From a virus (Duplodnaviria > Heunggongvirae > Uroviricota > Caudoviricetes), in the IMG/VR virus record IMGVR_UViG_2695420422_000005: a stretch of DNA of 11,561 nt, one strand, 5' to 3'. Position numbers: made by a program. Below, in pieces: positions 9,001 to 11,561 of this stretch (positions within the stretch are counted from its first letter, which is position 1; each line of letters begins with the position of its first letter).

Positions 9001-11561
9001 AAAGTCAGCGATGACGATCCGCATTACCACTCCGACCACATCCAGCGGTGGCGGAACAACCAACGCCCAGTTTACCTATATTAATCACGGAACAGATTAT
9101 TCACCTGGCTGGCGAAGGGACTATAACTCCAGAAATAAGCCAACGGCATCAGAGATCGGGGCGCTACCGTCAGGTGGAACAGCAGTATCATCAGTTAATC
9201 TGGCTTCAAAAGGTCGGGTAGCCGCGCTGACAGACAATACGCAGGGGGCAGCAGGTCTTGAGTTATACGAGGTGTATAACAACGGATATCCAACAGCGTA
9301 TGGAAATATCATTCACCTGAAAGGGATGACAGCCGTTGGCGAAGGTGAGTTACTCATCGGCTGGAGTGGTACAAGCGGTGCTCATGCTCCGGCATTTATT
9401 CGTTCACGACGGGATACGACCGACGCAAACTGGTCGCCGTGGGCGCAGCTTTACACCTCGGCTCATCCTCCTGCAGAGTTTTATCCAGTCGGTGCACCAA
9501 TCCCGTGGCCATCAGATACCGTTCCGTCTGGTTATGCCCTGATGCAGGGGCAGACTTTTGACAAATCTGCTTACCCGAAACTTGCAGCCGCTTATCCGTC
9601 AGGCGTGATCCCTGATATGCGTGGCTGGACGATTAAGGGCAAGCCCGCCAGTGGTCGTGCCGTATTGTCTCAGGAACAGGATGGCATTAAATCGCACACC
9701 CACAGCGCCAGCGCATCCAGTACGGATTTGGGGACGAAAACCACATCGTCGTTTGATTACGGCACTAAATCCACGAATAACACCGGGGCGCATACGCACA
9801 GTCTGAGCGGCTCTACAAGTTCAGCTGGGGCCCACCAACATAGTCAGACTGGGCCCAGAACGAATAGCGGGAGTCAACCTACTGGAATGTTTCCGGCAGG
9901 GAGTACTCAAGTTAGCGGGACTAATCAGGTTGGTATCAGTGGCTCATTAACCAGTGGCACCTCCCAATGGGTAGGTAAATCATCTTCAGAAGGAAACCAT
10001 ACACACTCACTGTCCGGCACAGCAGCATCTGCGGGTGCACACGCGCATACTGTCGGTATTGGTGCTCATACGCACTCTGTTGCGATTGGTTCACATGGAC
10101 ACACCATCACCGTTAACGCTGCTGGTAACGCGGAAAACACCGTCAAAAACATCGCATTTAACTATATTGTGAGGCTCGCATAATGGCATTCAGAATGAGT
10201 GAACAAGCACGGACCATAAAAATTTATAACCTGCTGGCCGGAACTAATGAATTTATTGGTGAAGGTGACGCATATATTCCGCCTCATACAGGTCTGCCTG
10301 CAAACAGTACCGATATTGCACCGCCAGATATTCCGGCTGGTTTCGTGGCTGTTTTCAACAGTGATGAGTCATCGTGGCATCTCGTTGAAGATCATCGGGG
10401 TAAAACGGTTTATGACGTGGCTTCCGGCGACGCGTTATTTATTTCTGAACTCGGCTCATTACCGGAAAATGTCACCTGGTTATCCCCGGAAGGGGAGTTT
10501 CAGAAGTGGAACGGCACAGCCTGGGTGAAGGATACGGAAGCAGAAAAACTGTTCCGGATCCGGGAGGCGGAAGAAACAAAAAACAGCCTGATGCAGGTAG
10601 CCAGTGAGCATATAGCGCCGCTTCAGGATGCTGTGGATCTGGAGATCGCAACGGAGAAAGAAACCTTGTTGCTGGAAGCTTGGAAAAAGTATCGGGTGTT
10701 GCTGAACCGTGTTGATACATCAACTGCACCGGATATTGAATGGCCAGTAGCACCTATAGGGTAAATTCGTAATGATTACCTAAATACGTTATTCTTTTGT
10801 TAAAAAAGTGATTTTGCTATAGGTAGGGAGTATGTTCTTGGATTAAGAATAAAAAATCGCCATGAAAGAGCTTCATGGCGAGTACATAAACGTACAAAAT
10901 GTGATGAAAGTAGAGTGGCGTAAGCCACTATATTAAGATATGACAATAGCGAAGAAAAGTAAATAACATTTTATGGACGTTTAATTGTTAATTATAAAAA
11001 CTAGAGTGCCCGATATTGTTTATCTTGCTTTAAAATAATGTACTCAAACCAAATTTTTGAGCTAAAAGCTCAAATAATATAAATGCAATAATAATGTTTA
11101 ATAAGACAATTAGCTTGCTTTGTATTTTCATTTCGGAATACTGTTAAGTAACTTTGATGACCCTAACAATAGATCGGAATTTTCTTAGAGTCAATGGTCA
11201 CTGTTTTTGCTTGCAAAGCAAATGTTTTGGTGGTTATAAGTCGTCTTAATATAGTCACGCATGCAACTTGTTCCATGCGGAGATTAAAGATTGGAATATA
11301 ACGCGAAGATGGAATTAAATTACATTTGCAATAATTAATTTATTATTACTCAATAATTACCGATATTATTATTGTAAATTAATCATTAGAATGCAAAAAG
11401 AAATGTAACGGCAAAATAAGAGGACGATAGCTGAGAAAAAAGCGTGCTTTCCCAATCTGGGGCAAATCACGTCTGAATGACACCTGAAAACAGGTGGTAG
11501 CCTCAAGAAGGCTGGTGATGCTGCCAACTTACTGATTTAGTGTATGATGGTGTTTTTGAGG

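Follow-up and report, generated by a model that had tools for sequence, protein, structure and literature searches.

Our results suggest that the AT-rich tract behind the tail fibre assembly gene, tfa, in the caudovirus record IMGVR_UViG_2695420422_000005 (IMG/VR; 11,561 nucleotides, the whole of which we call the window) is mosaic cargo that holds a gene. The tract (10765-11513) would combine a leftward unit of the moron type, which carries a gene similar to yncL of E. coli K-12, with a remnant of a serU attachment junction (attR) that has been cut by the insertion sequence IS1. We give this reading a probability of about 0.72. The window shows the tail end of a lambdoid prophage of E. coli, in which the side tail-fibre gene (7094-10183) is followed by tfa (10183-10764, plus strand, 193 aa), a gene taken from the list of open reading frames (ORFs) and annotated as tail fiber assembly protein in the related loci L004 and L005 and in phage ev099. 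The end of tfa is the left border of the tract, which is 749 bp long and has a GC content of 31.5%, against 55.1% for window positions 1-10764. The first-pass annotation had described an AT-rich stretch, placed where cargo is expected after tfa, and had found no gene in it. The composition and the cargo position are borne out, while the absence of a gene is contradicted by a conserved ORF of 33 codons within the leftward unit, homologous to YncL and with the sequence signature of purifying selection.

This ORF occupies 11131 to 11030 on the minus strand and is predicted, from its match to an NCBIfam profile and from its conservation, to encode a YncL-like single-pass small membrane protein. 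Its product, MKIQSKLIVLLNIIIAFILFELLAQKFGLSTLF, reads as MKIQSK, 18 hydrophobic residues and then QKFGLSTLF, and so fits the YncL pattern, in which a single hydrophobic transmembrane helix lies between basic residues in a chain of about 30. The YncL profile NF000537 matches it over profile positions 1-28 of 30 (E 1.3e-5, 25.0 bits). Three natural variants match the profile as well (E 3e-6 to 7.5e-5), and six composition-matched shuffles of the ORF gave no match to it at E <= 10. In a BLASTP comparison with K-12 YncL the alignment is gapless from Met1 to a K/R-F-G motif, with 11 of 28 residues identical (39%) and 18 of 28 positive (pairwise E 2e-7), and in a local six-frame search the two sequences are reciprocal best tblastn hits. 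Among the 14 small ORFs of the tract this is the sole one with a family match. None of the other 13 matches Pfam or NCBIfam, which leaves the earlier suggestion of a decayed cargo gene unsupported. No family in Pfam or PHROGs covers either the ORF or K-12 YncL itself. A phmmer search of 1.84 billion representatives returned the ORF itself and a frameshift allele and nothing else, and the exact protein sequence has two unnamed occurrences among 15 billion proteins. A tblastn search of the phage collection missed even the identical copies, presumably because of the low-complexity filter. The ORF is unannotated in RefSeq, and the tract is annotated as empty almost everywhere.

The pattern of substitution in the ORF is that of a protein-coding sequence. 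We gathered 82 copies from genomes, IMG/VR and metagenomes, and every one is intact over all 33 codons; they represent seven alleles in three lineages, typified by the window and by loci L008 and L009. By the Nei-Gojobori method, dN/dS in the ORF frame is 0.09 between the window and L008 (where dS is about 1.0), 0.04 between the window and L009, and 0.06 between L008 and L009, whereas the other two frames of the same nucleotides give 0.37-0.93 and more than 6. Segregating sites fall at codon positions 1, 2 and 3 in the proportion 8/2/13. In a set of 40 haplotypes of at least 90% identity, polymorphism per 100 nt is lowest in the ORF (6.9), in its 28-nt leader (7.1) and in the terminator discussed below (9.4), as against 13-40 elsewhere, and the indels between lineages sit directly outside the ORF. 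Taken at the level of sequence, these comparisons show frame-specific purifying selection. Two other ORFs of the tract were tried and rejected. The earlier statement that no ORF exceeds 37 aa holds for ATG starts, where the longest is a minus-strand ORF at 11163-11276 (37 aa), and fails when TTG and GTG starts are allowed, since these give ORFs of 48 and 52 aa. The 37-aa ORF, which is annotated in phage PhiR70_1, loses its ATG in L006. A plus-strand ORF of 24 aa (10862-10936) is kept in L008, but all four of its four changes there are non-synonymous, and its start lies within the terminator.

The signals around the ORF are consistent with a short leftward transcription unit. At its end stands an intrinsic terminator on the minus strand (10850-10881 in the terminator scan), with a perfect 10-bp stem (10857-10866 paired with 10872-10881), a 5-nt loop and an A-run at 10851-10856, which is read as a run of six U from 10856 to 10851. 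The hairpin has a folding energy of -15.2 kcal/mol (z -6.1), and its minus-strand tail is UUUUUUAUU; a U-run is missing behind the plus-strand hairpin. Every lineage has the terminator (a G.U pair at the top of its stem is changed to A.U), and the element that had been called a leftward terminator in the first reading, at 10851-10881, is thus confirmed on energy and on strand. Upstream of the ORF, a consensus scan finds a promoter-like site on the minus strand at 11166-11194 (TTGACT, a 17-nt spacer, TATTGT; 9 of 12 consensus matches). It reads TTGACT-17-TATCGT in L008 and TTAACT-17-TATTGT in L009, so that the spacing and key bases are kept. The -10 region, TCTATTGTTAG, resembles the extended -10 motif of sigma-S promoters, which we treat as a lead only. 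Placed from this site, the putative 5' untranslated region (UTR) would be AU-rich and about 28 nt long (11132-11159). The 3' UTR, as delimited by alignment and folds, would be about 150 nt long (10882-11029) and contains a conserved hairpin at 10914-10929; against L008 it is 89% identical over 10882-10970 and 53% identical over 10971-11029. The change in this hairpin in L009 gives a G.U pair on the minus-strand RNA and a C.A mismatch on the plus strand. In 48 viral contigs the ORF and the 3' element co-occur without exception. From these features we infer promoter activity and translation of the ORF; the function proposed below for the peptide is drawn from its homology to YncL.

The tract as a whole is rich in hairpins. 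Perfect stems of at least 6 bp (loops of 3-10 nt, nested stems included) number 16; in 1000 dinucleotide shuffles the count is 3.2 +/- 2.3 and always stays below 16. Eight stems contain three or more G/C pairs, as compared with 0.23 in the shuffles, and a 10-bp stem is found in 1.8% of the shuffles. Of the hairpins listed in the first reading, those at 11056-11074, 11258-11279 and 11481-11496 lie just where they had been placed; two more are real and need new coordinates, namely 10914-10929 in place of 10915-10930 and 11206-11222 in place of 11205-11219. Of all these, the terminator and the 10914-10929 hairpin alone persist in divergent copies. The hairpins at 11258-11279 and 11206-11222 are lost in them, and that at 11056-11074 falls within the coding sequence of the YncL-like ORF.

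YncL itself has about 31 residues and one hydrophobic helix (K-12 b4598; Salmonella STnc1110/STM14_1932). The K-12 protein is located in the inner membrane and is induced by heat and in minimal medium; its production lowers membrane potential, condenses the nucleoid and reduces viability, and it is presented as a stress-response protein with sublethal effects rather than as a toxin of a toxin-antitoxin pair (PMC12542507). YncL is a substrate of RseP. In Salmonella, yncL was originally listed as a small RNA (sRNA), STnc1110, and is sigma-S dependent (PMC5437024). The predicted unit in the window shares with yncL the form of a short monocistronic unit with a terminator and, like it, is of a size at which a gene can be overlooked or taken for an sRNA. 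It differs in that it is prophage cargo after tfa, whereas K-12 yncL lies at the chromosomal patD-ortT locus; in that it has no Shine-Dalgarno motif, where K-12 yncL has AAGGTGG; and in its 150-nt 3' UTR and unrelated flanks.

By our preferred reading, the promoter-like sequence at 11194 to 11166 would act as a sigma-70-type promoter and drive a leftward mRNA of about 310 nt. This mRNA would encode a YncL-like inner-membrane peptide of 33 residues (11131 to 11030) and end at the terminator, 10881 to 10857 plus the six U, which would also shield the tail genes from antisense transcription. By analogy with K-12 YncL, the peptide may insert into the inner membrane and lower the membrane potential as part of the stress or stationary-phase response of the lysogen, and lysogens would in this way gain a second, divergent YncL-like peptide. 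A cellular effect has been described for few small membrane proteins, of which YncL is one, and a phage-borne copy, if functional, would be a simple, testable case of a stress, dormancy or exclusion peptide that a prophage supplies to its host or for its own benefit.

Several observations weigh against this reading. The ORF falls short of the equivalog cut-off for YncL, which is 35 bits; the window allele scores 25.0 and the variants 22.5-27.1 (22-27 in all). We therefore call the product YncL-like, a divergent paralogue and not a YncL equivalog. The selection statistics draw on about 25 substitutions because only three sequence lineages exist, and scans of viral and metagenome data yielded more copies with no further lineage. 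A frameshift allele, P0003, is present in public data. The 20 nt that precede the ATG lack a Shine-Dalgarno motif in both the window and L008, and the promoter-like matches in the region (five found, 3.9 expected) are not above chance. Two scans of GTDB species representatives, one with a degenerate ORF pattern and one with a pattern for the 3' element, gave zero matches, and the module was thus not found in them outside E. coli.

The leftward transcript could instead be a non-coding or mainly regulatory sRNA, either as a whole or as a processed 3' end of about 120 nt of the Hfq-dependent type, the ORF being incidental or secondary. The first reading had proposed a small RNA ending at the leftward terminator. 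The last 120 nt of the unit are 89-91% identical to those of L008, against 53% for the adjoining spacer and 82% for the ORF, and the succession of the hairpin at 10914-10929, a single-stranded U-rich stretch and a terminator with six U resembles the layout of Hfq-binding sRNAs. The change in L009 preserves the hairpin on the minus-strand RNA only, no Shine-Dalgarno motif precedes the ORF, and Salmonella yncL was itself first catalogued as an sRNA (PMC5437024). However, no Rfam 15 family matches the tract (E <= 0.1 for the window, E <= 1 for L004), the only match being to a family inside tfa, and the 3' element varies as much as its flanks do among close haplotypes (9.0-14.6 per 100 nt), the ORF being the most constrained part. 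Recombination between lineages has taken place here, as L077 combines an ORF of the L009 type with a terminator of the L008 type, and so the high identity at the 3' end may reflect exchange and not selection. A long-range helix of the 3' UTR that is predicted in the window is absent in L008, with no compensatory change, and RNAduplex pairing with the patE leader, with the RNA's own 5' end and with the starts of tfa and stf was no better than for shuffles. The coding signature of the ORF holds regardless. We consider a non-coding role unlikely: since the ORF is conserved, selected and homologous to YncL, the RNA is most likely a short mRNA, and what survives of the earlier proposal is a plausible leftward transcript.

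Coverage patterns across genomes, from which the divisions were drawn, indicate a mosaic tract made up of three pieces, at 10765-11342, 11343-11428 and 11429-11513. The whole tract is found at 98.5% identity or more in 280 of 5426 complete E. coli genomes. The first piece (piece A, 578 bp), which holds the YncL-like unit, occurs at about 95.7% identity in many genomes after the tfa of other prophages, and its core, 10845-11200, is present in 828 of the 5426. Its contexts include at least three prophage types, among them a Qin-like remnant in ydfJ (L006, L007) and prophages that adjoin the sit operon (L008, L009). The module, as part of the whole tract, is also present in the isolated temperate phages mEp332, PhiR70_1 and ev099, and it is absent from lambdoid prophages such as L060 and from O157 prophages. 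Roughly every seventh complete E. coli genome thus carries the gene, as do viable temperate phages, yet no annotation that we examined includes it. Between the stop codon of tfa and the terminator the module has a spacer with no recognisable feature (10765-10849), which is 66% identical in the divergent copy L008 and is among the most polymorphic parts of the module. Upstream of the promoter-like site, the remainder of the 578-bp module (11195-11342) is delimited by the matches of about 95.7% identity after tfa, which end at 11342. The second piece (11343-11428) is a very AT-rich linker with hairpins of A and T only, found solely in the lineage of prophages at att-lambda, that is, in the 280 genomes with the full tract.

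In L006 and L008 a decayed 3' fragment of tfa comes after the module, and the modules therefore seem to have been exchanged by recombination at the conserved 3' end of tfa. The 3' part of tfa in the window, 10526-10724, corresponds to Rfam RF02111, 'IS009' (218 bits). What Rfam lists as a candidate sRNA is here simply a conserved stretch from the 3' part of the coding region of tfa. The decayed copies that flank the modules in L006 and L008 suggest that the IS009/tfa 3' segment is a recombination site for the exchange of cargo. In the Qin-like context of L006, the next cargo module (5820-6017, minus strand) has an annotated gene for a 65-aa hypothetical protein, WP_000348576.1, which lies between two decayed tfa fragments and is directed leftward like the YncL-like gene.

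The third piece has another origin. Positions 11429-11513, which include the hairpin at 11481-11496, match the extreme right ends of serU-integrated lambdoid prophages in O157, O26, ST131, APEC O1 and other strains, and correspond to the distal phage arm of their attR junction. In L004, which is free of IS1, and in the true serU prophage L060, this arm runs 110 bp further into a 59-nt 3' fragment of tRNA-Ser(CGA). The serU fragment is followed by about 280 bp that match the chromosome downstream of serU, on the zinT side, in 5423 of 5426 genomes. Arm, tRNA fragment and chromosomal flank together make up a fossil attR that has captured host DNA, located at 6667-7199 in L004 and found too in L001-L003 and in Sakai L086, at about 18460-18800. 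To judge from these matches, 11429-11513 is the defunct remainder of the phage arm of an old attR at serU; the window keeps just 85 bp of the arm, and the core of the junction is replaced by IS1. About 300 bp past the host DNA stands a gene of the AraC family (L004 7506-8249, L005 7724-8467), YdeO/GadX-like, which is identical at 246 of 247 positions to Sakai ECs_0287 of prophage Sp1. A review places patE, an acid-resistance regulator gene, on OI-8 (PMC10877973), which Sp1 corresponds to; our equation of PatE with ECs_0287 combines that placement with the annotation of Sakai Sp1. The serU fragment, the host DNA and the regulator recur in Sakai Sp1 behind another left arm, and the changeover lies precisely where the serU fragment starts, as is expected of junctions made by an integrase. 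The first reading had also considered a silenced regulatory region; in relatives of the window the AraC-like PatE gene does lie downstream, but 0.75 kb beyond the tract. IS1-free relatives have 1.5 kb without an annotated gene ahead of patE.

The last 48 positions of the window (11514-11561, plus strand) are the left end of IS1, inside which the window stops; the IS1A transposase is annotated at this junction in L005, L087 and L088. They equal the start of the 768-bp IS1A copy in L005 (6750-7517), and the junction between tract and IS1 is common to at least 60 genomes. The base after IS1 in L005, 7518, corresponds to L004 7300, so that 550 bp are missing with no target duplication, which fits an adjacent deletion by IS1. 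The missing DNA comprises the remaining part of the arm together with the serU fragment, the host DNA and a further 100 bp or so. L088 is built in the same way as L005. The first-pass annotation had supposed that IS1 may have removed or disrupted whatever lay to the right and had proposed a comparison with relatives that lack it. This comparison bears out the supposition: in the IS1-free relatives the arm continues to the serU fragment, the 280 bp of host DNA and PatE, L005 and L088 lack 550 bp of this, and in L087 all that lay beyond IS1 is replaced. In L087 (STEC409; 2715-5262) the tract-IS1 junction is again the same, but beyond IS1 a truncated htrE, a fimbrial usher gene, takes the place of patE; this points to another rearrangement mediated by IS1, of which this genome has about 30 copies. 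In the IS1-bearing relatives that keep the PatE-like gene, IS1 ends 206 bp before its start codon, and this proximity could alter the regulation of the gene.

By our preferred reading, a capture of host DNA like that seen in lambda-bio phages would have brought the serU attR junction and patE into the phage lineage, and the insertion of IS1 at 11514 would have come later, with a deletion, in relatives, of the adjoining 550 bp. The likeness lies in the arrangement of the relatives, where the arm, the 59-nt tRNA-Ser(CGA) fragment and the 280 bp of host DNA stand at the site of lambda-bio substitution after the tail/b region. Unlike tRNA attR junctions in place, this one is a fossil within a phage that now integrates at att-lambda, on the ybhB-bioA side. 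The tract thus illustrates how cargo may build up behind tail-fibre genes, through recombination at the 3' end of tfa, a fossil attR with PatE, and deletion by IS1. Similar positions after tfa are held by the cargo loci of PatE, of PsrA/PsrB in O157:H7 and of tfaX-appY in DLP12, but unlike these AraC-regulator loci the tract is neither a regulator gene nor its proximal leader, and in the window IS1 intervenes. In DLP12 of K-12 (L089 5062-5681) a tfa fragment is followed by 620 bp with a GC content of 27.6% and no annotated gene, and then by the AraC-like appY; no YncL-like ORF was found in this tfaX-appY spacer.

Could the tract be inert AT-rich filler, that is, an H-NS-coated spacer or a remote upstream region of the AraC-like gene, built up by recombination at the 3' end of tfa, with an ORF and hairpins of no role? 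Its GC content is very low, PGAP annotates nothing in it in any genome, in the relatives no gene is annotated over the 1.5 kb that precede patE, DLP12 presents a similar picture of tfaX, low-GC spacer and appY, and the stacked tfa fragments give the region the look of a recombination dump. This would leave unexplained the dN/dS values of 0.04-0.09, the homology to YncL and the 82 intact ORFs among 82. Moreover, most of the genomes that bear the module, in the Qin-like and sit contexts, are without patE, and the module is therefore not a patE leader; where both are present, the serU junction and the host DNA stand between them. We regard inert filler as improbable.

Phage morons, a concept of Hendrix and colleagues, are extra genes such as bor and lom of lambda and the moron genes of HK97. 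The YncL-like unit resembles them in being an extra gene at a lambdoid module boundary with its own promoter-like site and its own conserved terminator, in its atypical GC content (31% versus 55%), in its patchy presence among relatives and in being dispensable for lytic growth. It is unlike classical morons in that it is much smaller and is transcribed against the late operon, its expression being predicted. This reading does not overturn current ideas; its worth is in annotation and in the clean experimental target that it provides.

We think it quite improbable that the 310-nt transcript is a dual-function RNA, which would encode a depolarising YncL-like peptide for toxicity, exclusion or dormancy in about 15% of E. 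coli strains and also release a 120-nt Hfq-binding 3' sRNA that acts on host genes. The unit also resembles type I toxins (Hok, Ldr, TisB, Ibs, ShoB) in having a small hydrophobic peptide, here of 33 aa with one helix and predicted membrane activity, a mobile element and a structured mRNA (the long 3' UTR has z -5.0), and it differs from them in that no antitoxin RNA was found and there is no sequence similarity. That it is the toxin half of such a pair, which would stabilise the prophage or exclude phages while a plus-strand antisense or divergent RNA restrains the peptide, is very improbable: YncL does depolarise the membrane and lower viability when it is made, and a plus-strand promoter-like match (ATGACA-18-TAACAT, 10940-10969) does face the 3' end of the gene, but that match is weak (9 of 12), its -35 is not retained in L008 (ATAGCA), it is not followed by a terminator on the plus strand, such an antisense RNA would span the spacer that is conserved least in the whole module, a fold-back of the 5' on the 3' end that would hide the start codon is not conserved between the window and L008, and YncL is described as a sublethal stress-response protein and is not classed as a toxin of this kind (PMC12542507).

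Two further genes of the window show irregularities. The tail-tip gene J (2757-6448) contains a tandem direct repeat of 194 bp, with copies at 4077-4270 and 4271-4464 that are 95% identical over the readable part, and the first copy ends in a masked run of 48 N (4223-4270). The repeat length is not a multiple of 3. The J frame is split into ORFs at 2757-4304 and 4334-6448, and this split may be a real disruption or an artefact of assembly or masking. The lom gene (Ail/Lom family; 6519-7001) encodes 160 aa instead of 199. Relative to L004 it is missing about 89 bp near its 3' end, its frame shifts ahead of the last beta-strands, and it is probably a pseudogene.

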